Positions 8,213 to 34,204 of a stretch of 64,000 bases of DNA are shown here, one piece after another; the first letter of the stretch is position 1; every line of letters begins with the position of its first letter. The translations under genes and the position numbers were made by a program. The notes under the pieces were generated by a model that ran no database searches, was not told the origin of the DNA, and was given only the letters and a program-made list of their open reading frames with translations. This DNA is from Myxococcota bacterium. GTDB lineage: Bacteria > Myxococcota_A > SURF-8. The DNA lies in contig OZ223209.1 of NCBI GenBank assembly GCA_965140415.1, positions 320,001-384,000 of the forward strand, written 5' to 3'.

Positions 8213-9583
8213 ATGAGGGTACAGCAATCACCGAGGCCTGCTCTCGTGGCCGTATTTTTTGCGGTCCTGATTTCTCTTGTTTTTCTAGTAGGTTGTGGCG
8301 CGAAAGCACGACCGGAGGCGCAGACTGCCGCCGAACCGCTGGCCATTAAGAATATCCAGGTCAGTGCGGAATCGGGTCGTCTGCGCATACAATGGAGCCT
8401 GCCGGCAGCGGAAATCAGCAAGGTGGCCGGTGTGCGCATTTACCGCAAACACTGGCCCACCGGCACCGCCGATCCGGCGCAGATCAAAACCCTGCTGATG
8501 GGCGAACTGCCCGCCACGAAACAGAGTGTAGACGGTCGCCTGGTTTATGACGACCGCGACATCCAAACGACCAACAGCTACGAATACCATCTGTTCGCCT
8601 ACGACGCGGAAAAGAAACTGGGACCGGACTACATGATTGGCCCCTTTACTCCCGTTTTCCCGACGGAGCAGGTAAAGGGCCTGGTCGCCCAGGCGGGAGA
8701 CGGCGTGGTGCAACTTAGCTGGATGGCAGTCACGGGCGCAGTCGATCCGGAAAGCGGTGAAATCGCCAACGACACCGGCCTGCGCGTCGATCTCTATCGC
8801 GCCGAGGGCGAGCAGGGACCGTACACGCCCCAGGCCATCAACGATAAGCCCCTTGTTTCAACTGGTTACGAAGACTACGACGTGCGCCCCAGCAAGAAAA
8901 TGCGTTACCAGGCCCGGCTGGTGCGTATCGAAAAGGGAGTGCGTCTGCTCGGTCCGTTGACCCCGGAAGTCTCCGTTACGGTGCAGGACAATACGCCCCC
9001 TGCGGCGGCACAGGTGCTTGAAAGCGAAGCCATCGAAGGCGGCGTGCGGCTGTTGTGGCAGCCGGTGCCGGATCGTGGTTTGCTGGGTTATCAGGTTTTA
9101 CGCCGCAGCGCCAAACAGGAGCCGAAGGCATTTGCCCCGGTTTCCGGCCTGTTGACGGTGGACGAATTCACCGACCGCACAGTGGCCGATCCCGATACCT
9201 ACGTGTATCAGGTGATTGCCATCGATCGCGCGGGGAATCGTTCGCAGTCCGCCGAACGATCCATCGTGTACCCCAAACCGGAATCTCCGGCGCCCGCTCC
9301 GGCTCCGACGGAGGGAACGACTCCCGCCGCCGAAGAAAAACCTGTAGCCGCTCCGGCTGCAACCGCCGCCCCCGCAACGGAAAAGAAACCCGAAGCGGCT
9401 CCGGCGACGACGGAAGCTCCCGCAGCAGTCGCCGAACCGAAAAAAGAAGCCGCACCTGCAACAGCCGAACCGGTAGCTCCCGCAGAGGAAAAGAAAACGG
9501 AAGCGGCTCCGGCTCAGTCGGAACAGACAGAGCCTGCCGTAGAAGAGCCGCCCATCGTGCCGGTGCTGGTGCCTTTGCAATAA
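8213..9583 (+). CDS. Lipoprotein with fibronectin type III-like domains and Ala/Pro/Glu/Lys-rich tail
   Basis: Lipobox LVGC; three L.W...Y.IYR...Y.Y modules ending AIDRAGNRS; low-complexity C-terminus. Confidence 0.8.
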   Translation: MRVQQSPRPALVAVFFAVLISLVFLVGCGAKARPEAQTAAEPLAIKNIQVSAESGRLRIQWSLPAAEISKVAGVRIYRKHWPTGTADPAQIKTLLMGELPATKQSVDGRLVYDDRDIQTTNSYEYHLFAYDAEKKLGPDYMIGPFTPVFPTEQVKGLVAQAGDGVVQLSWMAVTGAVDPESGEIANDTGLRVDLYRAEGEQGPYTPQAINDKPLVSTGYEDYDVRPSKKMRYQARLVRIEKGVRLLGPLTPEVSVTVQDNTPPAAAQVLESEAIEGGVRLLWQPVPDRGLLGYQVLRRSAKQEPKAFAPVSGLLTVDEFTDRTVADPDTYVYQVIAIDRAGNRSQSAERSIVYPKPESPAPAPAPTEGTTPAAEEKPVAAPAATAAPATEKKPEAAPATTEAPAAVAEPKKEAAPATAEPVAPAEEKKTEAAPAQSEQTEPAVEEPPIVPVLVPLQ

Positions 9584-9630
9584 GCGCACTACGCCTGCCT
9601 AACTCGAACTTCAAGGATAGGAGGAGCGAC

Positions 9631-10506
9631 TTGGAACTCCATGGTGTTCTAACAGCATTAATCACACCGTTTAAAAACGGTGAAATCGATATTCCGGCTT
9701 TAAAAGCGCTGGTGAAACGACAATTGGACGCGGGTGTCCATGGTCTTGTGCCGCTTGGATCGACCGGCGAAGCCGCGACCATTTCGTTTGAGGAACGGGA
9801 AACCGTCATTCGCGTCGTGTTGGAAGAAGTCGCAGGGCGCGTACCCGTCGTGGTTGGTGCGGGAACCAATTCGACCGCCAGCACCATCGACATGGTGAAA
9901 CAGGCCAAGGAACTGGGCGCGGACTACGCCATGAGCGTGACGCCCTATTACAATAAGCCGACACCGGAAGGCATGCTCGCGCACTATCGCGCCATTCTGG
10001 AGGCGGTGGATATTCCGTTGTTAGCATACAACGTTCCGGGCCGTACCGGGATCAACGTCGCACCCGCACTGGCGGCTCAGTTGGCCGAATTGCCTGGTTT
10101 GGTGGGTTTGAAGGAAGCCAGCGGCAACATCATGCAAGTCAGTGAGATCGCTTCGTTAACGGAAGGAAAACTGGCGCTGTTCTCCGGCGAGGATCAACTC
10201 TTTTACTCGATTCTGACACTGGGTGGCGCGGGCGTCATCTGTACCTGCTCCAATATCCAGCCGGAACGGTTCGTGGAGTTGTACAAGCGCTATACGGATG
10301 GCGATCTGGCGGGTGCGCGCAAGATTCAATGGGAATTGCTGCCATTAATCAAGCTGATGTTCACCTTTACCAACCCGGTGGCGGTCAAGGCGGCTTCTAC
10401 CCTGCTTGGGCTGGTGGGTAACGAACTGCGCCTGCCGTTGACGCCGTTGGACGGCGCACAGCTTGATTCTATTCGCACCGGATTGAACAAAATCGGTTTA
10501 CTCTAA
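9631..10506 (+). CDS. dapA: 4-hydroxy-tetrahydrodipicolinate synthase
   Basis: GSTGE, PYYNKP, YNVPGRT, GLKEA; TTG start after AGGAGG. Confidence 0.97.
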   Translation: MELHGVLTALITPFKNGEIDIPALKALVKRQLDAGVHGLVPLGSTGEAATISFEERETVIRVVLEEVAGRVPVVVGAGTNSTASTIDMVKQAKELGADYAMSVTPYYNKPTPEGMLAHYRAILEAVDIPLLAYNVPGRTGINVAPALAAQLAELPGLVGLKEASGNIMQVSEIASLTEGKLALFSGEDQLFYSILTLGGAGVICTCSNIQPERFVELYKRYTDGDLAGARKIQWELLPLIKLMFTFTNPVAVKAASTLLGLVGNELRLPLTPLDGAQLDSIRTGLNKIGLL

Positions 10507-10524
10507 ATTCGAACGGGAGGATCT

Positions 10525-11328
10525 ATGCCCCTTGGCATCGGAATTTACGGAGCCGCAGGCCGAATGGGCCAGACCCTGCTGCGGCTGATTTTTCAGGCCG
10601 ACGATCTGCACCTGGCGGCGGCTTACGAAGCGGACGGCCATCCCCTGCTCGGCAAGGACGCAGGCAGCCTTTGTGGATTGGAAGAATGCGGCGTTTTGCT
10701 GCAAGCGCTCCCCGAGAAAATCGATGTAGATGTGCTGATCGATTTTTCCCTGCCGCAAGGCACCGCTACGTTATTGGATAAACTACAAACACAACCGCTA
10801 CCCTACATCTGCGGCACGACCGGTTTGGATGAAGCCATGCAGGCGCGTTTACACGACCTGGCCAAACTGACAGCAGTGGTGTGGGCGCCGAATTTCTCTA
10901 CCGGCGTGAGTCTGCTGTTCGATCTGGTTTCAAAAGCGGCGAGCATTTTAGGTGTGGAATCGGATATCGAGATTACGGAAATCCATCACCGCCACAAAAA
11001 AGACGCCCCCAGCGGTACGGCGGCCAAGCTGGCTGAACTGGCGGCGCTCGGGCGCGGATCGGACCCGAAGCAGGATCTGCTTTACGGACGCAAAGGCATT
11101 TCCGGCGAGCGCGAACGCGCCACCATCGGCGTGCATGCGCTGCGCGGCGGTGAAGTCGTCGGCGAACATACGGTGCATTTTCTGGCCGACGGTGAACGGC
11201 TGGAACTGACGCATCGTGCGGGATCGCGCGAAGCCTTTGCCGGTGGCGCGCTCAAAGCGGCTCGCTGGGCGGTTACAAAAGAAGCGGGAATGTATGACAT
11301 GATGAACGTATTGGGATTAGGAAAGTAA
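10525..11328 (+). CDS. dapB: 4-hydroxy-tetrahydrodipicolinate reductase
   Basis: GAAGRMG, GTTG, EIHHRHKKDAPSGTA. Confidence 0.97.
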   Translation: MPLGIGIYGAAGRMGQTLLRLIFQADDLHLAAAYEADGHPLLGKDAGSLCGLEECGVLLQALPEKIDVDVLIDFSLPQGTATLLDKLQTQPLPYICGTTGLDEAMQARLHDLAKLTAVVWAPNFSTGVSLLFDLVSKAASILGVESDIEITEIHHRHKKDAPSGTAAKLAELAALGRGSDPKQDLLYGRKGISGERERATIGVHALRGGEVVGEHTVHFLADGERLELTHRAGSREAFAGGALKAARWAVTKEAGMYDMMNVLGLGK

Positions 11329-11333
11329 GAATT

Positions 11334-12512
11334 ATGGCAGCAAAACGTAAATCTATTCTGGCGCAGCGGGTTCAAGAGCTGCCGCCTTATCTGTTCGCAC
11401 GTATCGACAAACTACGCGACGAAGTTCGCGCACAAGGGGTAGACGTCATCGATTTGGGTGTCGGCGACCCGGATCTGCCCACACCGGCACCGATCGTTCA
11501 GGAAATGGCGCGTGCCATCGAGCGCCCGGCCAATCATCGCTATCCGGCCTATCAAGGCTCCTATGCCTTTCGGCAGTCCTGCGCGAAATATCTGAAGCGC
11601 CGCCTTAAACTCAAGCTGGACCCGGACAAGGAAGTGCTGACGCTGATCGGCTCCAAAGAGGGCATCGCCCACTTGCCGCTGGCCTATGTCGATCCGGGTG
11701 ACGTGGTGCTAGTTCCCAACCCCGGCTATCCCGTGTACGCCATTTCAACGCGCTTCTGCGGCGGCGAACCGGTCTTTATGCCGTTATTGCAGGAAAACGA
11801 TTTTCTGCCCGACTTCAAGAAGATTCCGGCCAGGGTCTGGAACAAAGCCAAAATCATGTTCCTGAATTACCCGAACAACCCCACCGGGGCGCGGGCCACG
11901 GAAGAATTCTTTAAAGAGGCGATTCGCTATGCCGCGAAATACAACGTGTTGATCGCACACGATGCCGCCTATTTCGAAATCTACAGCGGACGCAAACGGC
12001 CCCTGTCGATTCTGGAGCTGGAAGGCGGACGTGATGTGGCCATCGAGTTGTACTCGCACAGCAAAAGCTACAACATGACCGGCTGGCGCGTCGGTTTCGC
12101 CGCCGGACAGCCGGAGGCCATCGACGCCCTTGGGCGCATCAAAAACAACGTAGATTCCGGTGTGTTCACCGCCATTCAAGAAGCGGGCATCGCCGCCAAC
12201 GAAATGGCGGTTTCTGCACAGAACGAACTACGCCGCGTGTACAGCGATCGACGCAAAGCCGCCTTGAAAGTGTTAACCAAAGCCGGTTTCGATGTGTTCG
12301 ACGCCGGGGCGACCTTTTACATCTGGATTCGCACGCCGAACAACCAACCGGCGGCAAGCTTTGCCATGCGCGCCCTTTCCGAAGCTGGAGTCGTGGTGAC
12401 GCCGGGAACCGGTTTCGGTGAGTCGGGCGAAGGTTACTTCCGCTTGGCGCTATGCACCAGTCAAGAGCGCGTGGCCGAAGCGGTGCAGCGTCTGGCTGCT
12501 TTGGCGGACTGA
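11334..12512 (+). CDS. dapL: LL-diaminopimelate aminotransferase
   Basis: LPPYLFA, GSKEG, NYPNNPTG, SHSKSYNMTGWR; dap operon context. Confidence 0.9.
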   Translation: MAAKRKSILAQRVQELPPYLFARIDKLRDEVRAQGVDVIDLGVGDPDLPTPAPIVQEMARAIERPANHRYPAYQGSYAFRQSCAKYLKRRLKLKLDPDKEVLTLIGSKEGIAHLPLAYVDPGDVVLVPNPGYPVYAISTRFCGGEPVFMPLLQENDFLPDFKKIPARVWNKAKIMFLNYPNNPTGARATEEFFKEAIRYAAKYNVLIAHDAAYFEIYSGRKRPLSILELEGGRDVAIELYSHSKSYNMTGWRVGFAAGQPEAIDALGRIKNNVDSGVFTAIQEAGIAANEMAVSAQNELRRVYSDRRKAALKVLTKAGFDVFDAGATFYIWIRTPNNQPAASFAMRALSEAGVVVTPGTGFGESGEGYFRLALCTSQERVAEAVQRLAALAD

Positions 12513-12518
12513 CAAGCG

Positions 12519-13010
12519 ATGCCGTTGGCCGCGATTTCCATCGGCTCCAATATCGGCGATTCGCGCCAGCAGGTTCGGGTGGCGTTCGAGGAGTTGAACG
12601 CATTGCCGCAAACTCGGCTCGTCGCCCATTCGAACCTGTACGAAACCGAACCGGTGGACGTCGTGACTCAACCCTGGTTCGTCAACGCTGCCGCAATTAT
12701 TGAAACCGATCTTACGCCTGAACAATTATTGCAGGCGATGCTTGACATTGAGGCCAAAGCAGGCAGAATTCGAACAGTGGATTCCATTAAGGGGCCACGT
12801 CCCCTGGATCTGGATCTGTTGCTGTTCGAGGATCGCGTGATCGATACGGAGCGTTTGTGCCTGCCCCACCCGCGTATGATGCAACGGCGTTTCGTTTTAG
12901 AGCCTCTACATGAAGTTGCCGCCGATTGGGTGCATCCCGTATGCGGGAAATCCATTTCGGCGTTATTCATTGACTGTACGGACCCGGCCACGGTGCGACG
13001 CATCGAATAA
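12519..13010 (+). CDS. folK: 6-hydroxymethyl-7,8-dihydropterin pyrophosphokinase
   Basis: IGSNIGD, GPRPLDLDLL, LPHPR. Confidence 0.96.
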   Translation: MPLAAISIGSNIGDSRQQVRVAFEELNALPQTRLVAHSNLYETEPVDVVTQPWFVNAAAIIETDLTPEQLLQAMLDIEAKAGRIRTVDSIKGPRPLDLDLLLFEDRVIDTERLCLPHPRMMQRRFVLEPLHEVAADWVHPVCGKSISALFIDCTDPATVRRIE

Positions 13011-13098
13011 CCGGTAACGATATCTGTTTTTTAAGATACTGTCAGAAGCTCAAAATCGCTGGGGTAAGAAACCGCAGCACCTACAAGGAGAATCGGAA

Positions 13099-13743
13099 AT
13101 GAAATTCTTTATCGACACCGCTGATGTCAATGAAATCAAGGAAGCCATCAGCTATGGTCTGGTGGACGGCGTTACGACCAACCCGTCCTTGATCGCCAAA
13201 ACCGGGCGCTCCTTCGACGACGTGGCCAAGGAAATCCTGCAACTGGTCAGCGGGCCGGTCAGCCTGGAAGTCACCGCACTGGATACTGAAGGTATGCTGA
13301 GTCAGGCGCGTGAACTGGCCAAACTGGGCGACAACGTCGTGATCAAGATCCCGATGACCATGGAAGGTATCGCAGCGGTACGCACCCTGGCGCAGGAAGG
13401 CATCAAGACCAACGTGACCCTGGTTTTCTCGCCGATGCAGGCTCTTTTGGCCGCCAAAGCGGGCGCGACCTACGTTTCCCCGTTTGTGGGTCGGCTGGAC
13501 GATATTTCCGAAGTGGGCATGGATTTGATCGAACAGATCGTACAAATCTACGAAAACTACGGTTTCACCACCGAAGTGCTGGTGGCTTCGATCCGCAACC
13601 CCGTACACGTGGTGGAAAGCGCATTGATGGGCGCAGACGTGGCGACGATCCCTCTGGGTGTCATCAAGCAACTGGCCAAGCATCCGTTGACGGATATCGG
13701 TCTGGACAAGTTCATGAAGGACTGGGAGAAAGTCCCGAAATAG
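13099..13743 (+). CDS. fsa: Transaldolase / fructose-6-phosphate aldolase (short type)
   Basis: [25 protein letters not shown]. Confidence 0.93.
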
Positions 13744-14549: not shown

Positions 14550-15257
14550 ATGAAAGCGTGTAGACATTTCATGGTGGTTTTAATGGGATGCCTGGTGCTG
14601 AATCTGTCTGGCGTCGCGTGGGCACAGCAAACGGATGCCGCTGCCCCACCTGCTGAAGAATCTGGTGCCGATGCGGTGGAACAACCGACCGAACAAGCGG
14701 TTGAAAAGACTACCGATACCGCCGAAGCAAAAGAAGCCGAGGCCACTAAGGAAGGTTGCGCAGAAGCACAAGACTGCAAAGAAGATATGACGATGGATCT
14801 CGGCGTTCCCGGCGAACCGCCGTTGCCGGGTGCCGTTGCCGTACAGGCAGAGCAGCCGGAACCGGAAGTCACGACGTTGCGCACGCATGGTGGACGCCTG
14901 ATCGGCTCCGGCGTGTTTTTCGCGATTGCCGGTGGCGTGTTGACCGGTGTGGGTGCTGACCAGAATGCCGATGAAGCCTTGTATGCCGGAATCAGCGGGC
15001 TGGGAATAGCAGCCATTCTAGCGGCGGTCGGTATTCCGTTGTTCGTGATGAATCCGGAAGAAGACGTGCAAAAAGAAGAAATGGTTACCTTGCAGTCGAA
15101 ACCGAAAAACGGCAACGTGCAGGTTCTGGAAATGGACGATTTCGAGGCGCAATTGCGCTACGTTGCAAGCCAGCAGACGGCACCCAAGCCGGTTTTGAGC
15201 ATCGCTCCCGCTATTTCGCCGGAATCCGCCGGACTTTTCATGCAGCTCGGATTTTAA
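14550..15257 (+). CDS. Exported/membrane hypothetical protein
   Basis: Signal peptide AWA-QQ, acidic linker, two hydrophobic helices, C-terminal strand ending in Phe. Confidence 0.7.
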   Translation: MKACRHFMVVLMGCLVLNLSGVAWAQQTDAAAPPAEESGADAVEQPTEQAVEKTTDTAEAKEAEATKEGCAEAQDCKEDMTMDLGVPGEPPLPGAVAVQAEQPEPEVTTLRTHGGRLIGSGVFFAIAGGVLTGVGADQNADEALYAGISGLGIAAILAAVGIPLFVMNPEEDVQKEEMVTLQSKPKNGNVQVLEMDDFEAQLRYVASQQTAPKPVLSIAPAISPESAGLFMQLGF

Positions 15258-15512: not shown

Positions 15513-16670
15513 ATGAGCAAGCGCTTGCATCTGGATTGCACGGGCGGCATTGCCGGAGATATGTTTATTTCCGCTCTCACCGGCTTGCCCATGGATATCG
15601 AAGCCTGGTGGGAGATCATGGATCGTCTGCCGCTGCCGGAATGGGAAGCGTCGTTTCCGGAGCGGTCGGAATGCGGCTTGATGTGCCGTACTTTGAAATT
15701 GACGTTGCCCGGCGGCCCCGGCGACCCGCGCGACGTGCGCTCGATCCGGCAGACCATCTTACAAGCCAAGCTGCCTTCCGAAGTGGAAGAGAATTCGTTG
15801 GCGCTATTGCAACTGCTGGCCGAAGCCGAAGGCAAGGTGCATGGCGAAGAACCGGATCTGGTTCATTTTCACGAACTGGCCGGATTCGATTCCATCTTCG
15901 ATCTGGTCGGTGCGGCGGCGGCGGTGCATCTGCTGCAGCCGGTGACGATCAGTTGCTCGTCGTTGCCATTGGGACACGGTACGGTGCAGACCGCGCACGG
16001 CGAATTGCCACTGCCGGTTCCGGTGGCGCTGGAACTGCTCGATGGCCTGCCGGTGCATCCGGTTGATATTGCAGGTGAAACCATTACCCCCACCGGGGCG
16101 GCCATTGCGCGTCATTTTGCAGGTTCCTTTTCCACTTTTGCCCAAGGTGCGATTCTGGCTCACGCCCAAAGCGCCGGGACAAGAAAGAATGCGCGTATTC
16201 CCAACATGCTGCGCGCCATCTTATTGGAGGAAGACGCCGGGGATTCGGAAACGCTGTGGGTATTGGAATGCAACCTGGACAATATGAATCCCGAACATAC
16301 GGATTTTCTTTTCGCCCGCCTGTTCGAAGCCGGGGCGCTGGATGTCTGGCTCAGTTCGATTCAGATGAAGAAAAACCGCCCGGCCCAGACCGTTTCCGTT
16401 TTAGTGCGCCCGAATCTGGCCGACGAGATGCAGCGGCTGCTCTACCTGCACACACCGACAATCGGTGTTCGGCGCTTTGCGGTGCAGCGTCATGCTCTTA
16501 AACGCAGCGAGGAGTTCCGTGAAACTCCATTGGGGACCGTGCGCGGAAAGCGCATCGACGCACCAGACGGTTCACGCTGGATGCCGGAATACGATGAACT
16601 GGCTCGTATCGCCTCAGAGCGCGGCTGGTCGATTCGTCAGGTGTTGGAAGCGCTTTCAGCCACGAGCTAA
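15513..16670 (+). CDS. larC: Nickel pincer cofactor Ni-insertase family (DUF111)
   Basis: LDCTGGIAGDM, VHFHE, TAHGELPLP, TPTGAA, ECNLD, QMKKNRP, PEYD. Confidence 0.9.
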   Translation: MSKRLHLDCTGGIAGDMFISALTGLPMDIEAWWEIMDRLPLPEWEASFPERSECGLMCRTLKLTLPGGPGDPRDVRSIRQTILQAKLPSEVEENSLALLQLLAEAEGKVHGEEPDLVHFHELAGFDSIFDLVGAAAAVHLLQPVTISCSSLPLGHGTVQTAHGELPLPVPVALELLDGLPVHPVDIAGETITPTGAAIARHFAGSFSTFAQGAILAHAQSAGTRKNARIPNMLRAILLEEDAGDSETLWVLECNLDNMNPEHTDFLFARLFEAGALDVWLSSIQMKKNRPAQTVSVLVRPNLADEMQRLLYLHTPTIGVRRFAVQRHALKRSEEFRETPLGTVRGKRIDAPDGSRWMPEYDELARIASERGWSIRQVLEALSATS

Positions 16671-17693
16671 AGGCGGGTTTTCGAATGATGCATAGCGGGA
16701 AGCGGCGGACTCGAAACGGTCGTCCAGTCCCGCTGCCGCCTGCAAGGCACGTCGTAGGAAATACCCACGCGCGGCTTCATCCTTTCTCATATGAAAAAAC
16801 AACGCCGTCTGAACTCCGAAAATGAATCCGTAATAGTTCAGTTTGCTTTTGTATTTGGGCGGGAAAGAGCGCTGCGCCTCGTAGCCGTCGTGAATGAGTT
16901 GATAGAAATCCGCTTCGTGTACGTGGGTGTATAGCGAGCAGATATCGACCAGTGGAGATCCGGCGGCGGCCTGGGTGAAGTTGACGAACCCGGTGATTTT
17001 TTTCTGCTCTCGATCTACCCATAGATTGGCGAACTGCAAGTTATTGTGCGTCAGTCCCAACGATTCCCCGATCATCACCGATTTAGATTTCTCACCGAAT
17101 TCCAGTAGTTGCTGGACCAACCCTTCATCGAGCATCTGGCTGGCCTGCACGTGTTTCATGACCGTATCCGCCATCAAACCAAAATACTTCTGCCAGGGGC
17201 CTGGATGCACCCCGTTGCCTTCGACTGAAATCAGCCCGGCACCTTTGACCTGAATGGAATGGATACGCGCCAGAAAGCGGCCAATCTGTTCTCCGATTTT
17301 CTCTTTTTCATCATTCGAAAACGAATCACCTGCGGCATAGCTGCGTGCAATCGGTTCGCCGTCGATTTTCTGTACAACCAAAGCGGGGCGCTCCACAAAC
17401 TCGCTGTTGGACTCTACCCCAATCGGCCTGGTCAGCGGAACGTGCAGGTTCAAATCCAACGTGGAACGATTGAAGCGATCCAGTTGATCGAGAATGTTGT
17501 ATTCCCGGTGAAGGATGGTAAAGTCACGGTTTTTCGGTTCCGCTTTCAGAATTTTGACCCAATAATCACCAACCTCGTAGGTATCGCAGGCCGGATCGAT
17601 CGGAACGCCATGAACCTGTTCCGGATCGGTTTCAAAATCCGATTTGAATTTCTGTATGAGTGAGATCAGATTTTCGGCGTTCGCTTGACTCAT
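16656..17693 (-). CDS. Aminoglycoside phosphotransferase/choline kinase-like fold protein, probably inactive
   Basis: VKI, REYNIL, FLARIH, LTHNNLQFAN, FVNF, GSPLVDI; GGAGG before ATG 17693. Confidence 0.75.
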   Translation of the reverse strand: MSQANAENLISLIQKFKSDFETDPEQVHGVPIDPACDTYEVGDYWVKILKAEPKNRDFTILHREYNILDQLDRFNRSTLDLNLHVPLTRPIGVESNSEFVERPALVVQKIDGEPIARSYAAGDSFSNDEKEKIGEQIGRFLARIHSIQVKGAGLISVEGNGVHPGPWQKYFGLMADTVMKHVQASQMLDEGLVQQLLEFGEKSKSVMIGESLGLTHNNLQFANLWVDREQKKITGFVNFTQAAAGSPLVDICSLYTHVHEADFYQLIHDGYEAQRSFPPKYKSKLNYYGFIFGVQTALFFHMRKDEAARGYFLRRALQAAAGLDDRFESAASRYASFENPPLARG

Positions 17694-17971
17694 GGGTTCC
17701 TCCATCGGCGTATTGATCGATGCTGAAACTGTAACAGAGAATGGGCGTTGACGCACCTTCTTTTCGCAGTTGAACATCTGCGTTACACCAAACCCACAGC
17801 GGCAATTGACACGCATTCCCGGTCATGTTACCTTTATGTGTAAGGCGTATCATCACGGTTTTGTATTGCACCGAATCGCCAGGAATTCCGAGCCGTTTCC
17901 GCTCTGCAAGTGGAGCGGTCCTTTGTTTTGCCTTTCGAACCATTCGGCAGGCACGCCACGATGAGGATAGC

Positions 17972-18184
17972 ATGAGTGACGAGCAAAAAGACGACCTGCA
18001 AAAAGAGAAGAAACTGCCGGCGTTCGAAAACAACCGGGATTTACTGCTGTTTCTGTACGTTCTGATCAAGCAGAACCGCAAGTGGTGGCTGTTGCCCTTC
18101 TTGTTCGTGCTGGGAATTTTAAGTCTCTTCGTCAGCTTGACCGGCAATACCTCGCTGTTGCCCGCCATTTACGCCCTGTTCTAG
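17972..18184 (+). CDS. DUF5989 (SxtK-like) small membrane protein
   Basis: RKWWLLP-hydrophobic-PAIYALF C-terminus typical of the family; GAGGA before ATG 17972; 70 aa. Confidence 0.85.
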   Translation: MSDEQKDDLQKEKKLPAFENNRDLLLFLYVLIKQNRKWWLLPFLFVLGILSLFVSLTGNTSLLPAIYALF

Positions 18185-18198
18185 GTCGGGATTCAGAA

Positions 18199-19671
18199 AT
18201 GGGTCAAGCTCCGACGCCAAGGCGTTTTCTCTTTATCCGCACCTTCAAGTTTCTCAAAGCCGGAGGACCGATTCCCCCGTTGGGGTTGTTGTACCTGGCT
18301 GCCTGTCTACGCAAACGCTTTGGTGACGACTTCCAGTTGCGCTTGGTCGATACCGGTTTGCTCGGGTTGGACGGCGTTAAACAGGCCATCACGGAATTCA
18401 ACCCGGATTACATCGGTATCAGCAGCATGAGTTGTGAAGAGGATTATCTCTTCGAGCTTTCCCGCTTTTGCAAGCAACAACACCCTGATTCTACAGTGAT
18501 TGTCGGTGGACCACATGCCACCGTAAGAAAGGAAGCGCTGCTTTCGGAACGCTCGCTGGATTATCTCGTTTTCGGCGAAGGCGAGGAAACGCTGGTGGAA
18601 TTATTGGAAGCGCTGGAAAACAAGAGCGATCCTTTGCAAGTGGCCGGAATCGCGGCGCGAACGGAACAGGGAGTGCAGACCAGTGAACAGCGTGCTCCGA
18701 TTGAAGATCTGGATGCCTTGCCCTTTCCGGCCTGGGATCTGATCGATGCCAGGGAATACGCCCGTTTTCCCAACTGGAACGGCTCGCTGAAAAAAGAATT
18801 CTACGCCGTGCTGGCCTCCTCGCGCGGTTGTCCCTACGGCTGTTTCTTTTGTCACAATCTGTTCGGTAAAACCGTGCGCGCCCGCTCGCCGGAAAGCGTC
18901 TTTGCCGAGTTGAAGTGGCTGCACGAAGAATACGGCGTGGAAGAAGTCCACATCCTGGACGATATCTTCAATTTCAACGCCGCACGTGCAACTCGTGTAA
19001 TGGAACTGGTGCTGGAATCGAAGATCGATTTCGCCTTTGCGTTTCCAAACGGTTTACGCGCCGACATCATGACCGAAGAACTGATCCGCATTCTCGCCAA
19101 AGCCGGAACCTATAAAATCAACTATGGTTTCGAAACGGCTTCTCCCCGCCTGCAAAAGCTGATCGGGAAAAACCTGAACGTGGAGAAAGCGGCGCGAACC
19201 TTCGAGTTGACCAGCCGGGCGGGTATTATTACCGGGGCTTATTTCATGCTGGGTTTTCCCACGCAGACGAGAGCGGAAATAGAGCATACCATCGACTTCG
19301 CCGCTCATTCCGCCCTGGATGTCGCTTACTTTTTCAAGGCGACGCCGTACCCTGGCAGTGGATTCTTTAACGAGGTCTTCGAGCAATCGTCCGATGAAGC
19401 TTCCGGGTTGAAGCAGATCGAGAATTACGGCGACTACCACTTCTATTCCGTCTCGCGTTCTTATGGCGAAGTGGATACAAACGAGTTGAACCTGTTGATG
19501 TTGCAGGCGCAACACCGGTTTTATTTCCGTTTCAGCCGCATCTGGCGCGTGTTCTGGAAAAGCAGCAAGAAAATGGAATTTCTGCATAACCTGTTGGAAG
19601 TCTTCGCGCTGTTGATTCAATCGTTTTTACTGAAACATCTGCTGGCAAGCGGCAAGGAGAAGACGCCGTGA
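18199..19671 (+). CDS. Cobalamin-binding radical SAM enzyme (class B methyltransferase-like)
   Basis: PPLGLLYLA, VGGPHAT, GEGE, SRGCPYGCFFC, TPYPGS. Confidence 0.92.
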   Translation: MGQAPTPRRFLFIRTFKFLKAGGPIPPLGLLYLAACLRKRFGDDFQLRLVDTGLLGLDGVKQAITEFNPDYIGISSMSCEEDYLFELSRFCKQQHPDSTVIVGGPHATVRKEALLSERSLDYLVFGEGEETLVELLEALENKSDPLQVAGIAARTEQGVQTSEQRAPIEDLDALPFPAWDLIDAREYARFPNWNGSLKKEFYAVLASSRGCPYGCFFCHNLFGKTVRARSPESVFAELKWLHEEYGVEEVHILDDIFNFNAARATRVMELVLESKIDFAFAFPNGLRADIMTEELIRILAKAGTYKINYGFETASPRLQKLIGKNLNVEKAARTFELTSRAGIITGAYFMLGFPTQTRAEIEHTIDFAAHSALDVAYFFKATPYPGSGFFNEVFEQSSDEASGLKQIENYGDYHFYSVSRSYGEVDTNELNLLMLQAQHRFYFRFSRIWRVFWKSSKKMEFLHNLLEVFALLIQSFLLKHLLASGKEKTP

Positions 19672-19841
19672 AGCGCATTCTGGCGTATCTAATCTGCCTG
19701 TTCGCCTTGCTGTTGCCCTGGCGGCTGCGGGTGGCCTTTGCCGGGTTATTGGGTTGGATTACCCAGGGGATTTACGGCCTGCTCTATGCCGTGATGCGCA
19801 TTCTGGTTAAAAACCTTCGTAACGACTCGGACAGCACATGA
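19668..19841 (+). CDS. 57-aa hydrophobic small protein (absent from the ORF track)
   Basis: GTG start overlaps the upstream TGA (GTGA) and its TGA overlaps the next ATG (ATGA); AAGGAG RBS; MKRILAYLICLFALLLPWRLRVAFAGLLGWITQGIYGLLYAVMRILVKNLRNDSDST. Confidence 0.8.
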   Translation: MKRILAYLICLFALLLPWRLRVAFAGLLGWITQGIYGLLYAVMRILVKNLRNDSDST

Positions 19842-20728
19842 CCAAAAGCCGTCAGATCGCCATTCTGTTTTCAGGCGGTACGGATTCGACTGCTGCCACA
19901 GCGCTGCTTGCCGAGCAATATGACCGGGTGCATCTGCTTTCCTATTTTCATTCCGGTTCGGCGCAGCCGAAAAACGCCGCCACCAACATTCCCAAGTTGG
20001 TCGAGTTGTACGGCGACAAGTTCGAGCATCACATTTTTTCCACCGACAAGTTATTTCGCCATTTCACCTACGAGCGCTATTTCAAAAACCTGCGCCGGTA
20101 CGGCTTGTTCAACCTGACGAGTTGCGGTTTCTGCAAACTGGCCATGCACGTGCGCACGCTGGTTTATTGCCTGGATCATGATATTATCGAAGTTGCAGAC
20201 GGTGCCAACCGGCACATGTCGCACTTTCCGGCACAGATGAAAGCCATGCTCGATCCGCTGCGTGAACTGTACGCCCATTTTCACATTTCGTTTGAAAATC
20301 CGGTGTTCGAATACGAGAACCCGCGTGAAATCGATTGGATACACAAGCTCGGCCTGGCGGATCTGGCGCAATCGTCCTCCAAAAAGAAGCTTGCTGAAAA
20401 AGAGGAAGCAGCTGAGGTTTCTGCAAAAACCACCGGCGATTTGCTACTGGAGCGCGGTATTCTTTCCAACGCGAATGTCAAAGGGACGGCGACCGACCGC
20501 AAGATGCAGGCGCGTTGCTTTCAACTGACGCTGCTAAACGCCTTTGCTTTAGGCTACTTCATTCCAACAAAGGGCATGGATGCCTACCAGCAGGGCATCT
20601 CGCGCTTTTATACGGAAAAGATTTCCGTGGCGGAAGAGTTGTTACAGGACTATCGGGAGCGAGGAAACGAAAGCCGTTTGGCCGGGCTAGTCGAGCGTAA
20701 TGATCTTGGGGAACATGATGCCTCGTAA
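19838..20728 (+). CDS. PP-loop (adenine nucleotide alpha hydrolase) ATPase, QueC-like fold
   Basis: ILFSGGTDS PP-loop, CGFCK CxxC, DGAN, later Cys in QARC. Confidence 0.8.
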   Translation: MTKSRQIAILFSGGTDSTAATALLAEQYDRVHLLSYFHSGSAQPKNAATNIPKLVELYGDKFEHHIFSTDKLFRHFTYERYFKNLRRYGLFNLTSCGFCKLAMHVRTLVYCLDHDIIEVADGANRHMSHFPAQMKAMLDPLRELYAHFHISFENPVFEYENPREIDWIHKLGLADLAQSSSKKKLAEKEEAAEVSAKTTGDLLLERGILSNANVKGTATDRKMQARCFQLTLLNAFALGYFIPTKGMDAYQQGISRFYTEKISVAEELLQDYRERGNESRLAGLVERNDLGEHDAS

Positions 20729-22004
20729 AACCTCGGCAGACACCACGATGTCCTATCCGGTTTTAGGAAAACTGCTGGCTTTGGGATTCGGCCTGTTTCT
20801 GCTGGTCGTACTGGAACTGGTTGCCAGACTCGCCCTGCCGGAAAGCCACCTGGATCGGATTCTGGATATTTTACAGCAGGACGCAACCCTCTTCTGGCGA
20901 CAGCGACCCGAATTGAATACGATGTTCGCCGGAACCGAAGTCACGACCAATGAAATCGGGCTGCGCATTGCACCTGACTCGAACGCATCGATTTTGAAGA
21001 AGCAGGCAGAAGTTCCGCGCATCGTCTGCATGGGCGCTTCGCCGACCTTCGGTTGGGGAGTTACGGAGAAACAAGCCTACAGCCGCCGGCTTGAACCGCT
21101 GCTTTCCGAAAAACTGGGGAAGCCGGTCGAAGTCATCAACGGCGGGATGATCGGGTATTCCTCGCTGCAAGGTGCGCGTTTTTTCGAGCGGGAAATCCTG
21201 CCATTGCAACCGGATTGGATCACGGTCTCCTACGTTATCAACGATGTGGACAAATACCGCTTTTTCCGCACGGATGGCCGCCCGGATCGTGAACTGAAAC
21301 CGCTGGATGAAACGGGCGTCTGGCTGCGGAATCTGCTGATGAAAAGTGCGTTTTATCGACTGTATGAGCGCAGCCTGCATGTGATGCTGCAACGGCGCGG
21401 ACAGTTGGACGGAAAACCGCTGCGGCTTTATCGCCCCGGCGAGGTGCGTGTACCACCGCAAGATTACGTAAGCAACCTGGCGACCTTTGCCGATCTCTGC
21501 AAGCAGCACCATATCGGCCTGCTGTTTGTTGCCATGCCCATCAATCTGCCTGTTGGAAAAAAGCTGTCGGCCAAAGAGCGACAACGAGCGTCGGAGTTTT
21601 TGCAGGAAGGTCTGCGCCTGGCGGCTGCCGATCGGTGCGAGCAGGCGTTAGAGCCTTTACAGAAAGCGGTTGAATTGAATCCCGACGCCAGCGAGGCGCA
21701 CTACCAGCTTGGTGTCTGCTATTCCGAACTGGGTAAGGAGCCGGAGGCGCGCGCGGCTTTCGACGCCGCCATGCTCAGCGAGGCTCATCGCTGTGGAGCG
21801 GATGGACTGCGCTACAACGACCTGCTACGCGAATTTGCCGGGCAACGACGCATTCCCCTGGCGGATGTCGCAAGCGTCTTTAGAAACGAACAGGAAGAAT
21901 TGTTTCTGGTGCAGGCCGGAGACCCGATTCACCCCAACGCCAAAGGCCACGCCATCATCGCCCGACTGTTGGCCGAGACGCTGTCGAACTTCATGACACG
22001 CTGA
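20715..22004 (+). CDS. Membrane-anchored SGNH/GDSL hydrolase with inserted TPR repeats
   Basis: N-terminal TM ending LELVAR, GAS-PTFG block I, NGG..GY, IND, DPIHP; TPR (AVELNPDASEAHYQLG). Confidence 0.85.
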   Translation: MMPRKTSADTTMSYPVLGKLLALGFGLFLLVVLELVARLALPESHLDRILDILQQDATLFWRQRPELNTMFAGTEVTTNEIGLRIAPDSNASILKKQAEVPRIVCMGASPTFGWGVTEKQAYSRRLEPLLSEKLGKPVEVINGGMIGYSSLQGARFFEREILPLQPDWITVSYVINDVDKYRFFRTDGRPDRELKPLDETGVWLRNLLMKSAFYRLYERSLHVMLQRRGQLDGKPLRLYRPGEVRVPPQDYVSNLATFADLCKQHHIGLLFVAMPINLPVGKKLSAKERQRASEFLQEGLRLAAADRCEQALEPLQKAVELNPDASEAHYQLGVCYSELGKEPEARAAFDAAMLSEAHRCGADGLRYNDLLREFAGQRRIPLADVASVFRNEQEELFLVQAGDPIHPNAKGHAIIARLLAETLSNFMTR

Positions 22005-22296
22005 GTGTTGGGGTTTTTCTACTCATCGCCGTCAATTTCCGTACAACCAATGCAATCCATGTCCAGCTATAAGTCAGGCAGATTTTACCCGACAAAAAAC
22101 ATATCGGACTACGACTGGGGTTGCTCAACCCATGATGATTTCACCTTGCTTAGAATTGGACAAAACCTGGTGAAAGGTGTAAGAATATAGGAACTTACGA
22201 AGCAGGCGGACGGATTCAATCGGTGGATGTTGTGGCAACAGTCCCAAGATACCTGGTGCGCCTGTGCATAGCCCGGAAATTCAAACGGAAACAACC

Positions 22297-24672
22297 ATGA
22301 ACCAGACTGAAAACAAACGTGCGATCCTGCTGCCGTTCGTGGTATTCATCACCATTTCCCTGGTCTTTCTGGGGATCTGGGTGTCCTCTCGGCAACAGCA
22401 AAAGAATGTTCGGGAAAACCGCACTGCCCAGATTGCCGAACAGGTAGCGATCCGGCTGGAAACCTATTTCGAAACTCGTTTCGATATTGTAGGCATGATG
22501 AAAGTCGAATGGGAGCAGGGCAGGCTTCATCAAAAAGATGAATTCCGCAAGCGCGCACTGTATATCCAGAAGCAATTCGAAGGGCTACTGGCCATCAACT
22601 GGATCGATCCCGAGGGGGTGATTCGCTGGGTGGTGCCGGAGGAAGAAAACCATTCCGCACTGAATCGTGATCTGAAACGCCATCCCGGTGGTGCCTCGAA
22701 AACATTCATGCTGGCTTATGAAAGCAGCCAATTTCAGGTTACGCCGCCCATCGATCTGTTGCAGGGCGGACGTGGTATTGCCGGGTATTTCCCTTTGTCT
22801 CTCCAAGGCAAACAGGACGGATACTTAAACGCTGTTTTCCGATTGAAACCTTTGGTGGAAAACTGCCTGTCGCGCGGTGTGTTGAAAAACTACGCCTTTG
22901 TTCTGCACGATGGTGCGCACAAGGTGTATCAGAACGGAACGGATGACGCTTTGGCCGGGAACATCATGCAATCCGCGCAAATGCTGACCGTCGGAAACCG
23001 GCAGTGGAGCCTGCAACTGATGCCCATGCCGGCGACTCTGGCTCGATACCAGACCAATATGCATCATTACTTTCTGGCCCTGGGTTTCGTGCTGGCTTTC
23101 GGGCTGGCCTATCTTACCCGGCGTCTGATTCTTCGCGAACAGGCCTTATCCGAAAGTGAGCATAAGTTCCGCGCGCTGGCCGACTCTACCAGCGCCGCGA
23201 TTTTCATTTCCTATGACGATCACTATATCTATGCCAACCCAGCGGCCATTCGCCACACCGGGTACAGTTTCGAAGAGCTTTGCAAGATGAACCCGGAACA
23301 GATCCTGCACCCGGATAGCATGGCCTACATCATGCGCTTGCGTGAACGGGCAAGGCGGTTGAATGAAGCAATACCTTCCCGGCTGGAGCTACGAGTGGTT
23401 ACGGCGGATGAAAGTGAACGTACCGTAGAGGTGACTTACGGAAGCTTCGAGCTTGGCGGAGTTCCTGCCGTGATTACCACCTCTTTCGACGTCACCGAGC
23501 GCAAACAGGCGGAACAGAAACTACGCGAGGAGGAGCATAAATACCGTACCATTTTCGAGACCAGCGGCAGCGCCATGGTGAGTCTGGATAAGGACGCCAT
23601 CATTTTACTGGCCAATAAGGAATTCGAGAAACTGAGCGGATACACCCGGAAGGAAATCGAAGGCACGAACCTCTGGTCGAAGCTGCTCGATGCGGAAAGT
23701 CTGCAAAAACTGGAGAAACTCCGCAAACTGGACGATCTGGACGAGAAACTGACGACACATAGCCAGGAAATGGTTCTGATTAACCGCAACGGGAAAACCA
23801 TCGATTGTCTCAGCCTGATCAACGTGGTTCCCGGTACCGATCAATGGGTCATGTCGTTTGTGGATATCAGCGAACGTAAACAGGCCGAATTGCAGATGCT
23901 GCGCGCGGAGAAAATGGCGGCTTTGGGGCAGATTATCGCCGGTGTCGCGCACGAGATCAATAACCCCAACAACTTTATCTATTTCAATCTTCCCATTCTC
24001 AAGCGCTATGTGGATGCCATCCGACCGATCCTCGATCGGGAGGCCGAGGAAGTAGAGCATCTGCGCATTTTGAACATGTCCTACCATGCCTTTTTGGAGG
24101 ATCTGTACAAGCTGATTGAAAACATGCAGGACGGCTCGGAGCGCATTACGGGAATCGTATCCGAATTGAAGAATTATATCCGCAGTCACGAAGCGCAGGA
24201 GAAAAAGCCGGAGCCGATTGCGGCGATGGTCGATCGTGTCATGATCCTGGTGGGCAAGCAGGTTCGGAAAATGGTCAAGCATATGGAAATCGAACTCGAT
24301 CCCGACCTGCCCAAGGTGCTGGTGCATTCGGGAAAAATCGAACAGGTGCTGATCAACCTGATCATCAATGCAGGCCAGGCGGCGAATAAAGCGGACAGTC
24401 GCGTGCGCGTGTCCGCCAATCGACACCCGCAAAACCGGAAAATCGTACAATTGCGTATACAGGACAACGGCTCGGGCATCGACAAAGAATTGCGCGAGAA
24501 GATCTTCGATCCCTTTTTTACCACCAAAAGCCGGGATTCAGGCACCGGACTGGGCCTGGCGATCAGTCAGCGTATCATCGAAGAACATGACGGTCGCCTC
24601 TTTCTCGACGAAACGGAAGCGGAAACGACCTTTATTATTGAACTTCCCATGGCAGAAAGCGAATACGCATGA
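22297..24672 (+). CDS. Sensor histidine kinase (CHASE-like periplasmic domain, two PAS, HisKA, HATPase)
   Basis: Two TMs, [13 protein letters not shown] repeats ending DVTERK/DISERK, AHEINNP, DNGSG, GTGLGL. Confidence 0.93.
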
Positions 24673-26030
24673 GAGCGTCTGTGTTGATTGTAGATGACGA
24701 ACAGGCTTTTTTAGATAGTCTGGCGCGGATGCTGCGCATGGAAGGATACGAAAATCTCTGTATCCGTTCCGATTCGACCCAGGTTCCGCAACTCATTGAA
24801 AAGCAGCGTTTCGATGTGGCTTTTCTGGATGTAACCATGCCCGAGCTAGATGGCATGGACCTGTTGAAAATCATTAAAGAAAAACAACCCCAGACGGAAT
24901 GCATCATGTTGACGGCGCAGGACAGCATCCAGACCGTCATGCAGGCCACACGCTTGGGTGCTTATGATTATCTGATAAAACCGATTCTGCCGGAGCGGGT
25001 GATTCACAGCCTGGAAAAAGCACTGGAACATCGACGTTTACTGGAATCGCTGCGCATGCGTTCGGAAACCGCACAAGCGCAGACACTGAATCAACCTGAA
25101 GCCTTTCAAGCCATCGTGACCGGCAATTCGCGAATGCTGAAACTGCTGCACGAAGCGGAACTGCATGCCGCCAGCAGAATTCCGGTTCTGATTACCGGTG
25201 AAACCGGAGTCGGCAAGGAACTGTTGGCGCAGGCGGTGCATCGTTGCAGCCGGATGCGGCAGGGAGCCTTCGTTCCCGTAAATATGCTGGCGCTTTCGCC
25301 TACGTTATTCGAGTCGGAATTTTTCGGCCATGTCAAAGGTGCATTCACCGGCGCGGAGCGCAACAAAACGGGCTATCTTGCCTCTGCCGATCAGGGCAGC
25401 CTGTTCCTGGATGAAATCGGCGATTTGAGCCTGGAAATACAAGGCAAGCTGCTGCGTATTTTACAAGAGGGAGAATTCACTCCGGTCGGCAGCAGCCAAT
25501 CCCGACCGGCAAACGTCCGCTTCATCGCCGCGACCAATCAGAATCTGGAAGAACAGGTCCGCAAACAGCTTTTCCGCAAGGATCTGTTTTATCGACTTCA
25601 ATTCGCCCATTTGCATCTGCCTCCTTTGCGGGAGCGCCGCGACGATATTCCTCTTTTGTGCGCACACGCGCTGGAGCGGTTCGGCAAGGAAGACATGTGC
25701 CTTTCAGATGCCGCGCTACAGCGCTTGCAGCAGCACGACTGGCCCGGCAATGTGCGCGAATTGATGGGAATTCTGGAGGCGGCGGTCAACCTGGCCGAGC
25801 AGGGAGAAATTCTTCCATCTCACTTGCGGTTACCAAAATCTTCCAGCCCAAAACCTTTGCCTGCCAATCCGTTGGCAATGGATGAGCTGCAACCGCTGGA
25901 AGACATCGAACGGGAGCATATTCTACGTGTTTACAATGCGTTGGATCACAATAAAAGCCAAACTGCGCGCGCCTTGGGCATCGGTCTGCAAACCCTGCAT
26001 CGAAAACTGAAAAGTTACGAAGTTTCCTGA
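24669..26030 (+). CDS. Sigma54-dependent response regulator
   Basis: REC domain, GETGVGKE, GAFTGA, HTH; ATGA overlap with the kinase. Confidence 0.95.
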   Translation: MRASVLIVDDEQAFLDSLARMLRMEGYENLCIRSDSTQVPQLIEKQRFDVAFLDVTMPELDGMDLLKIIKEKQPQTECIMLTAQDSIQTVMQATRLGAYDYLIKPILPERVIHSLEKALEHRRLLESLRMRSETAQAQTLNQPEAFQAIVTGNSRMLKLLHEAELHAASRIPVLITGETGVGKELLAQAVHRCSRMRQGAFVPVNMLALSPTLFESEFFGHVKGAFTGAERNKTGYLASADQGSLFLDEIGDLSLEIQGKLLRILQEGEFTPVGSSQSRPANVRFIAATNQNLEEQVRKQLFRKDLFYRLQFAHLHLPPLRERRDDIPLLCAHALERFGKEDMCLSDAALQRLQQHDWPGNVRELMGILEAAVNLAEQGEILPSHLRLPKSSSPKPLPANPLAMDELQPLEDIEREHILRVYNALDHNKSQTARALGIGLQTLHRKLKSYEVS

Positions 26031-33900: not shown

Positions 33901-34204
33901 TGCGTTCGCCCACCACACCCGCACGGACTTCGCCGTCCTCCAGTGCGTCGCCGACATTCAAAGGCGTGGTGTCGTTGGGATCGCCAAGATCCGTATCGGT
34001 GTCGAGATCGCCGTCGTTCTCCGAATCCGCGTCTTCGACATCCGCGTTTTCATCGTCGCCGTCGGTGATGACGTCGTCGCCATCGGTGGGCGGCTGATAA
34101 TAGGTCGTATCGTCGTTACAGGCGAAAACGAAGAGCAACACGACAAGAAGAACGATCGCTGCAAAAGGATAGTACAACGTTCCTTTTAATTGAGAATGGA
34201 TCAC
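30989..34204 (-). CDS. Large lipoprotein with CehA/McbA-like (PHP-fold) domain
   Basis: Lipobox VFAC, DGD linker, GDFKLYN, DLNIHS, EGVE, WLSLL..G, SNPIF; GTG start after AAGGAGG. Confidence 0.75.
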   Translation of the reverse strand: MIHSQLKGTLYYPFAAIVLLVVLLFVFACNDDTTYYQPPTDGDDVITDGDDENADVEDADSENDGDLDTDTDLGDPNDTTPLNVGDALEDGEVRAGVVGERSQLPASDGQGQVGDFKLYNSKAAFVIAAAGPGRGFNLTGGSLLDAVLLDSNGDTRTEDLLFDAFPVISSNTDVLPYDGNIHMFRADKIELIHNGSGGFPAHVRASGIDWPIQQVDNMLAAPINPKVALTVDYYLDADATYLRMDMTVSIYQQPQDADGDLDMEEAGTETAEIDIDPVDLTLEYVRPGLGVMTDSSLTPFYPGQDTDGIAIFDGGRSFQGYYHPYYAFSKSDFSYAVTSGEAKNLFSMMLLPKPAFILGYQDFAVTEIAPNTQSLVFMISEGPAEQVFADMQAFREESLPNKVVATSSVSGTVDFSDRVDLQAQEVEIIAIETRKIGGSAENPKYHDYIHASSYLDAQGAFELQLPAGDWHLVTVAPWGERSDALDVTVVEEESLQGLEVPAPPRGAVVTISVNEERDEGTFPLGARVDFYHGLLDFGPTGSMPGNIPIERTVFTTETPGEIQVRLPLGGAVNSQYSVVVSCGIHYSVCAEQHTYRAYLGDGEKQGPRNVVLRRIVDPTIEMPPGEAGMYLHTADLNIHSNASLYSDMTKTERVNNLRAEGVEVFVGSDAETIGDYTEALSETGASGGAHPVHWVPGMQITSNNGQYLGVNVLKPQDSPEYTGVWSTAYDQENGTYAGLQPPGEIWQQLKENYGASFVQISRPRGVEDAPAFFDVFGKSEGYDPFEGIDSLQFLVRSQMENWDTMEVINGEEPFAYTYAAIQDWLSLLHQGYYKPITANSELQAASKEDFRHIGSPINLVISDQETLSPNSALDQILRLGQGHNIVTTGPTVTMRLGNALPGDTYTPPGTENSVRLEFNVKVQAPPYVKVNHIYVCINGYPMDSNHMVPGSVSAPVRMNRSFATNVSRTNGHDAYAVVFAFGDAMEDLYPTYPWTPSFAVSNPIFIELDGEPGFTPPPMHTRAETDESFVPYCRSEHLCDYFYNLGLWEDVTAFDVQAHCCAAYPEKSYCQ

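Follow-up and report, generated by a model that had tools for sequence, protein, structure and literature searches.

Five adjacent genes in a 64-kb stretch of contig OZ223209.1 from the Myxococcota bacterium GCA_965140415.1 (hereafter the window, to which coordinates refer unless another locus is named) raise the question of what chemistry could bring together, in this order and all on the + strand, a DUF5989 (SxtK-like) microprotein (g1), a B12-binding radical S-adenosylmethionine (SAM) enzyme (g2), a second hydrophobic microprotein (g3, here called mic), a YcfA-like PP-loop ATPase (g4) and a membrane-anchored enzyme of the SGNH hydrolase fold (g5). We tentatively read this cassette as an envelope-glycan modification system in which a tyrosine shuttle and an SGNH enzyme are served by a new PP-loop/radical-SAM loader. 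The strictly conserved part of g1 is its extreme C-terminal tail, with a tyrosine at position -4 and a terminal phenylalanine, and the cassette is conserved in many mostly uncultured bacteria of several phyla.

Related loci came from a pattern scan of species-representative genomes, which returned 207 stretches, 176 of them encoding a PP-loop relative; the best 80 were kept. Hidden Markov models (HMMs) made from the clustered open reading frames (ORFs) of these 80 loci were run on six-frame ORFs of the same loci plus the window (81 in total), and because the models were built from the loci they were run on, the resulting family counts measure recurrence and not independent membership. Sources of the PP-loop relatives include Myxococcota, Omnitrophota, Elusimicrobiota, Bacteriovoracaceae/Halobacteriovorax and Planctomycetes, among others. 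The collinear order DUF5989, B12 radical SAM, mic, PP-loop, SGNH is found in 9/80 of these loci, eight of the nine with an extra SGNH gene in front. The five-gene order drawn in a preliminary description of this DNA is thus conserved elsewhere, and a chance gene cluster was rejected because the order recurs in other genomes.

The tyrosine tail and its proposed SGNH partner

The DUF5989 assignment of g1 in the preliminary description is borne out by Pfam PF19451, which g1 matches at 46.3 bits (cut-off, 27), with residues 28-70 on profile positions 7-49 of 49. The protein has a single hydrophobic span (residues 40-58) and ends in LLPAIYALF, placing Tyr67 at -4 and Phe70 at the C terminus. Across 32 aligned DUF5989 proteins, all of which end at the same column, P42, P64 and Y67 do not vary. 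Among the DUF5989 genes of the 81 loci, Tyr is at -4 in 60/60 and Phe is terminal in 59/60, with AIYALF as the tail 34 times; among 111 family representatives from a library-wide search, 105 have Tyr at -4, 100 have Y..F and 57 have the exact FxYxxF. In a phylum sample of 301 genomes, 173 of which encode DUF5989, the tails of the 30 best matches all read APF[IV]Y[AT][LI]F (30/30). The N-terminal flank of the hydrophobic span is more positive than the C-terminal flank in 32/32 DUF5989 sequences (mean +2.5 versus +0.1), and the N flank of the SGNH proteins is more positive in 19/25 sequences. Because of this charge bias, g1 is predicted to lie N-in, C-out with its Tyr tail outside, and the SGNH domain of g5, with its N-terminal anchor, is predicted to lie outside the membrane as well. 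A profile search of the PDB with the DUF5989 alignment gave no match at E up to 10. The name DUF5989 is absent from the literature searched, in which acyl shuttle, microprotein and SGNH were joined in Dlt and Pat papers only. A second DUF5989 gene in the same genome, with an exact FXYXXF tail (PFIYALF), follows Rieske and DUF2231 genes, precedes a Mut7-C RNase gene and has no carbamoyltransferase in its vicinity.

According to PMC12148441, DltX and the MBOAT protein PatA carry an extracellular C-terminal hexapeptide called the 'acyl shuttle', FXYXXF (in N. gonorrhoeae PatA, FIYANF), the tyrosine of which is acylated and then donates to the catalytic serine of an SGNH partner, DltD or PatB; the same text describes two membrane systems that move acyl groups to envelope polymers through tyrosine, MBOAT-SGNH and AT3-SGNH. 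As in Dlt (DltB MBOAT, DltX, DltD SGNH) and PatA/PatB, the cassette combines a one-span microprotein, whose C-terminal hexapeptide has its Tyr at -4 and ends in Phe, with an adjacently encoded SGNH protein that is anchored at its N terminus, and with an envelope-polymer context. In contrast to those systems, neither an MBOAT nor an AT3 protein belongs to it, nor does a carrier protein or CoA-thioester logic, and the parts proposed as its loader are a PP-loop ATPase, which has a microprotein of its own, and a B12 radical SAM enzyme. The likeness to DltX and PatA is one of tail motif, and in the window it is inexact, AIYALF standing in place of FxYxxF; the exact hexapeptide occurs on carbamoyltransferase-linked DUF5989 copies.

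The proposed partner, g5, matches Lipase_GDSL_2 (63.3 bits) and TPR families in Pfam and has a hydrophobic span at residues 19-37. S109, G147, N176, D403 and H406, which make up SGNH blocks I, II, III and V, are invariant in an alignment of 25 sequences. An SGNH gene lies directly upstream of 27/60 DUF5989 genes on the same strand and directly downstream of 8/60, and the closest g5 relatives in other loci stand mostly directly before DUF5989. Fold matches of the predicted g5 model (predicted local distance difference test (pLDDT), 88) are SGNH esterases, with CgnD (PDB 8a2n) first (Foldseek, 5.8e-10); DltD, PatB and OatA are not among the 50 matches listed. CgnD frees the C-terminal Ile-Tyr-Trp core in the crocagin pathway, which makes a peptide of the ribosomally synthesized, post-translationally modified kind (RiPP) and includes a carbamoyltransferase (PMC10070186). 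The structural likeness of g5 to CgnD takes in the N-terminal beta module, at 14-16% identity; unlike g5, CgnD is soluble and has neither a TPR insert nor a membrane anchor.

The first rank of CgnD among the fold matches of g5 speaks for an alternative, a RiPP- or cofactor-like reading, which we consider quite unlikely; a RiPP-like substrate had also been raised as an alternative in the preliminary description. DUF5989 would then be a membrane-anchored precursor with its tail as the substrate of the B12 radical SAM enzyme and of a YcfA-like thio-modification. In a continuation of this scheme that we also count as improbable, SPASM and carbamoyltransferase enzymes would add changes in relatives, after which the tail would be inserted and cut by the outward-facing SGNH enzyme, as by CgnD. 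Such a pathway would suit the peptide-tailoring enzyme set of the related loci (B12 radical SAM in 42, SPASM radical SAM in 20 and the carbamoyltransferase CmcH in 20 of 81), the position of DUF5989 genes directly before a radical SAM gene (17/60) or before mic/PP-loop (18/60), the carbamoyltransferase of the CgnD pathway (PMC10070186) and the canonical, hydrolase-type block II glycine of g5, and it needs no membrane conduit. It fits poorly with a tail that is near-identical across phyla in a family present in 173/301 genomes, unlike most RiPP cores, and with the polysaccharide-export contexts of canonical DUF5989, beside Poly_export and sugar dehydrogenases. Moreover, no protease, RiPP recognition element-type or transporter genes recur in the related loci, CgnD stands only ~1.5 Z units above ordinary SGNH esterases, and the GT-C, GT9 and Wzy_C genes nearby speak for glycans.

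Candidate loading enzymes

By profile and by predicted fold, g4 is a close relative of YcfA. It carries the PP-loop signature SGGTDST, with D16, and in an alignment of 26 sequences SGGxDST, C96, C99, H104, D121, N124, Q133, Q224, R226 and C227 are invariant. A profile search of solved structures (hmmsearch) found YcfA at 7e-20 over profile positions 7-164 and QueC at 1.7e-5; Foldseek placed the predicted model (pLDDT 87) with YcfA at 8.6e-12 (TM 0.68-0.79 on target) and QueC at 2e-5, followed by weaker matches to TtuA, ThiI and LarE (~1e-4 to 1e-3). A true QueC was rejected: g4 stays below both curated cut-offs, at 20.9 bits over residues 9-48 only for Pfam PF06508 (cut-off, 22) and 20 bits for NCBIfam TIGR00364 (cut-off, 150.3), and YcfA is far the better match by sequence and fold. 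The C96/C99/H104/C227 set of g4 we take, from what is known of QueC and TtuA, to be a candidate zinc or iron-sulfur cluster site. A protein collection holds 77 near-length relatives of g4, almost all unnamed and metagenomic, and Atlas clusters matching it are unnamed or DUF7411/QueC-tagged only. No fused PP-loop forms were found among proteins of 519-2000 aa, which is weak evidence. Full-length orthologues (>200 bits) occur at 10 places in 9/301 genomes of the phylum sample, own genome included, and in a further 31 of the 301 the match is limited to the N-terminal ~160 positions of the PP-loop profile; on this count the cassette is an accessory set of patchy distribution.

This distribution also bears on the proposal that g4 is a housekeeping enzyme of the QueC or tRNA-thiolation type in an incidental neighbourhood, which we regard as highly improbable. 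Some database records call relatives 7-cyano-7-deazaguanine synthase or tRNA methyltransferase subunit, and the weaker fold matches include tRNA thiolases; against these stand the sub-threshold QueC scores, the small number of genomes with full-length orthologues, the linkage of mic in 81/81 loci and the recurrence of the cassette.

YcfA, from 6-thioguanine biosynthesis in Erwinia amylovora, adenylates the C6 carbonyl of guanine and adds L-cysteine, whereupon the pyridoxal-phosphate (PLP) lyase YcfC leaves the thioamide (PMC12494993). g4 has the same fold and keeps the PP-loop Asp and the KLAxH, DG and FP.Q motifs, and, as with YcfA-YcfC, a PLP sulfur enzyme is encoded two genes away in many relatives. 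Unlike YcfA, g4 has Ala and Met at the positions that PMC12494993 assigns to the guanine base catalyst E134 and the cysteine-activating Q129, adds C96, C99, H104 and C227 as well as a ~70-aa C-terminal helical extension, and has a membrane microprotein as partner. In place of a YcfC C-S lyase, the relatives have as their PLP neighbour a cysteine desulfurase of the SufS/CsdA type (E 1e-79). In all related loci that have it, a gene for a ~120-aa membrane protein (u121) with 2-3 hydrophobic segments and a CCG motif at its N terminus lies between the PP-loop and SufS-type genes, and u121 may be a membrane sulfur relay; in about half of the full-length loci these two genes come after the PP-loop gene. 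The cassette contains no PLP enzyme, the window has neither the desulfurase nor u121, and one u121 query found no match in the own genome, which is 93.7% complete.

From its domains, g2 is a B12-binding radical SAM enzyme of no named subfamily. It matches B12-binding (PF02310, 68.9 bits) and Radical_SAM (PF04055, 85.6 bits), with CPYGCFFC at residue 211. Twenty-seven NCBIfam models match, and none of the 25 matches listed reaches its cut-off (best, BchE, 175 bits versus 481). The nearest solved chains are AprD4 (2e-18), TokK and TsrM. Orthologues with 37-59% identity adjoin DUF5989 or mic in related loci, and the C-terminal helix of g2 is amphipathic.

The microprotein mic has no Pfam family at cut-off and no NCBIfam family at cut-off among the matches listed. 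It shows the motif LPWRLR...LGW..Q..Y..Y, with P17 and G29 invariant and R21, W30, Q33, Y36 and Y39 at at least 90% in the alignment. A mic homologue accompanies the PP-loop gene in every locus and directly precedes it in nearly all of them; it lies just after the PP-loop gene in L048-L050, ~0.7 kb before it in L054 and L057, and ~3 kb away in L063. A relationship between mic and DUF5989 was rejected (hhalign profile-profile probability, 2%). Positive charge at the N-end, the PWRLR loop and the C-tail of mic means that it may sit in the cytoplasmic leaflet instead of forming a membrane-spanning hairpin.

Such an anchor would also serve a scheme without any shuttle, which we hold to be unlikely. 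Here the PP-loop enzyme, anchored by mic, and the radical SAM enzyme would work at the cytoplasmic face on a lipid or lipid-linked glycan precursor, DUF5989 would serve as no more than a membrane scaffold or regulator, and the SGNH protein would be a separate periplasmic esterase that trims or edits the exported polymer. In favour of this, every catalytic loader is predicted to be cytoplasmic and no conduit came to light, the charge pattern of mic fits a monotopic anchor in the cytoplasmic leaflet, g2 ends in an amphipathic helix and has lipid and hopanoid enzymes among its sub-threshold NCBIfam matches, and the oxyanion hole of g5 is of the hydrolase type. What this scheme leaves unexplained is the conserved C-terminal hexapeptide, predicted to be periplasmic, with its invariant Tyr, and the frequent adjacency of SGNH and DUF5989 genes.

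Recurrence, relatives and layout of the cassette

Across the 81 loci, the mic and PP-loop families are each present in 81, SGNH in 54, DUF5989 in 53, B12 radical SAM in 42, the SufS-like PLP enzyme in 34, u121 in 31, CmcH and SPASM radical SAM in 20 each, and a further radical SAM family (r406) in 13. The 44 loci with complete 7-kb flanks include DUF5989 in 31, SGNH in 35 and both together in 30 (30/31 of those with DUF5989); any radical SAM enzyme is present in 34, the SufS-like enzyme and u121 in 22 each and together in 21, and CmcH in 16. All five window families are present in 17/44, 14 of which are without CmcH.

In saxitoxin clusters, sxtI-J-K form a carbamoyltransferase-SxtJ-SxtK (DUF5989) module, and CmcH-DUF5989 pairs are widespread. 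The cassette resembles these modules in having a DUF5989 member and a cytoplasmic group-activating enzyme with small membrane proteins; it differs in having neither carbamoyltransferase nor SxtJ and a tail of AIYALF rather than FIYTLF. The habitual pairing of DUF5989 with a NodU/CmcH-type carbamoyltransferase, asserted in the preliminary description, is seen in the phylum sample, where a carbamoyltransferase lies within 1.5 kb of 24/30 of the top DUF5989 matches and within 8 kb of 18/20. Its absence from the cassette is also real: there is none in the window (0.32-0.38 Mb), and the three Carbam_trans_N matches of the own genome lie megabases away, at 2.94, 4.83 and 5.80 Mb. Two further claims found no support in the form given. 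Canonical DUF5989 genes were said to keep company with SGNH and SxtJ genes, which, with narrow models, were found in only 3/20 and 5/20 loci. The radical SAM and PP-loop enzymes were said to occupy the place of the carbamoyltransferase, and such a simple replacement was rejected, since CmcH co-occurs in 16/44 full-flank loci and L065 and L066 hold both modules, each with a DUF5989 of its own. The order in these two loci is CmcH, SxtJ, DUF5989 (FVYTLF), GT2, DUF5989 (AIYALF), mic, PP-loop and B12 radical SAM, which suggests that the loader of the cassette runs parallel to the carbamoyltransferase/SxtJ loader. Canonical CmcH-DUF5989 loci have sigma-54 regulators (10/20), Poly_export (4/20), DUF362 (5/20) and sugar dehydrogenases (4/20) as neighbours; no sigma-54 regulator cluster recurs in the 80 PP-loop loci. 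The ORF map of one locus, L145, has many long overlapping frames and is not interpretable.

Translational coupling links the five genes of the cassette, and the co-directional arrangement reported earlier, a gap followed by GTGA, ATGA and overlapping junctions, is seen in the ORF listing and translation (Table 1). GAGGA, a Shine-Dalgarno-like sequence, precedes g1, and AAGGAG lies 8 nt 5' of the g3 GTG. A sigma-70 promoter and terminator scan of 17500-22500 did no better than on shuffled sequence. Among sequencing runs, three holders are listed, all from one study and none of them RNA. The flanks consist of unrelated genes by Pfam annotation.

Table 1. Positions of the cassette genes, of their neighbours in the window and of genes in other loci named in the text
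Feature	Position	Strand	Description
g1	17972-18184	+	70 aa, stop TAG; DUF5989 (SxtK-like) microprotein
g1/g2 spacer	18185-18198		14-nt gap
g2	18199-19671	+	490 aa; B12-binding radical SAM enzyme (domain-based)
g3 (mic)	19668-19841	+	57 aa; GTG start inside GTGA junction; hydrophobic microprotein
g4	19838-20728	+	296 aa; ATGA junction with g3; YcfA-like PP-loop (adenine nucleotide alpha-hydrolase) ATPase
g5	20715-22004	+	429 aa; 14-nt overlap with g4; membrane-anchored SGNH hydrolase-fold enzyme with inserted TPR-like helical module; alternative ATG start at 20700 gives 434 aa
Housekeeping run	9055-13743		DapA-like, DapB, class I/II aminotransferase, HPPK, transaldolase
ORF	14550-15257	+	235 aa; no Pfam family at E up to 0.001
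LarC-type gene	15513-16670	+	Nickel insertion; upstream of cassette; 15-nt overlap with 3' end of APH-family gene
APH-family kinase gene	16656-17816	-	Divergent from cassette
PAS histidine kinase and sigma-54 response regulator	22264-26030	+	Downstream, same strand as cassette, 260 nt past g5
ORF	30989-34204	-	1071 aa; no Pfam family at E up to 0.001
Second DUF5989 gene, own genome	C1:4364234-4364377 (L003 8208-8381)		Tail PFIYALF
u121, example	L019 7851-8216		Membrane protein with N-terminal CCG motif
Two-module locus	L065 5104-7816		CmcH and PP-loop modules, each with DUF5989

Proposed mechanism and its significance

The shuttle reading can be set out as a sequence of steps. mic would tether g4 to the cytoplasmic membrane face, where g4 would adenylate a small donor at a carboxyl or carbonyl and turn it into a thio-activated form, the sulfur coming in trans in this genome. 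g2 would tailor this donor, most simply by methylation. The group would then reach Tyr67 of g1 on the outer membrane face, and Ser109 of g5 would take it from Tyr67 and pass it to a polysaccharide or lipopolysaccharide. An envelope-glycan target is consistent with the GT-C enzymes (PMT_2, YfhO-like), GT9, GT2 and Wzy_C of the PP-loop loci and with the Poly_export and sigma-54 regulator genes of canonical DUF5989 loci; the PP-loop loci also have a sulfatase, an AsnB-like enzyme and TauE as neighbours. The preliminary description had proposed a trans-membrane group-transfer module of small membrane proteins plus SGNH, and this idea is strengthened by the DltX/PatA-type Tyr tail and by SGNH as the usual neighbour; the passage through the membrane is something we infer, and no conduit was found.

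Several results weigh against this mechanism. The window flanks, the recurrent neighbour clusters and 22 unclassified polytopic neighbours with at least 6 hydrophobic spans (22 of 23 screened, one 1742-aa protein being left out) yielded neither an MBOAT nor an AT3 protein; 12/22 of these polytopic neighbours have no Pfam family. In the window copy, Ala stands where FXYXXF begins with Phe, and the Tyr and terminal Phe are present. At the positions aligned with the YcfA base E134 and Q129, g4 has A132 and M127, so that neither residue is shared with YcfA. Canonical CmcH-DUF5989 pairs have this SGNH family within 8 kb in only 3/20 cases, and peptide tailoring is typical work for radical SAM, SPASM and thioamide-type enzymes. 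CgnD heads the fold matches of g5, at Z 22.4 over 251 residues versus 19-21 for generic esterases. In the proven transferases PatB and OatA the block II Gly is replaced by Ser or Asn, giving an atypical oxyanion hole (PMC12148441). The SGNH enzyme of the cassette, unlike these, keeps the glycine: G147 is invariant in 25/25 sequences, and its block II suggests a hydrolase more than a transferase. The CgnD match and the kept block II Gly together argue against a simple PatB-like transferase and leave the peptide-processing alternative alive.

Extended from the cassette to the family, the tyrosine-shuttle reading leads to a more doubtful proposal, namely that DUF5989/SxtK represents a third class of tyrosine group shuttle that works without MBOAT or AT3 and would carry a carbamoyl group (CmcH-linked copies) or a thio- or methyl-tailored group (this cassette) by way of an SGNH transferase to envelope glycans. 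If true, such a class would give the long-unexplained sxtJ/sxtK genes a function. A Tyr tail and an SGNH enzyme operating without either membrane acyltransferase would point to a further route for envelope decoration, occurring in Myxococcota, Omnitrophota, Elusimicrobiota, Bdellovibrionota and others, and new envelope chemistry, with sulfur-containing or carbamoyl groups, would be possible. Through Tyr67, Ser109 and Cys96/99/227, two families of unknown function and an uncharacterised YcfA-like branch become open to direct tests at single residues.

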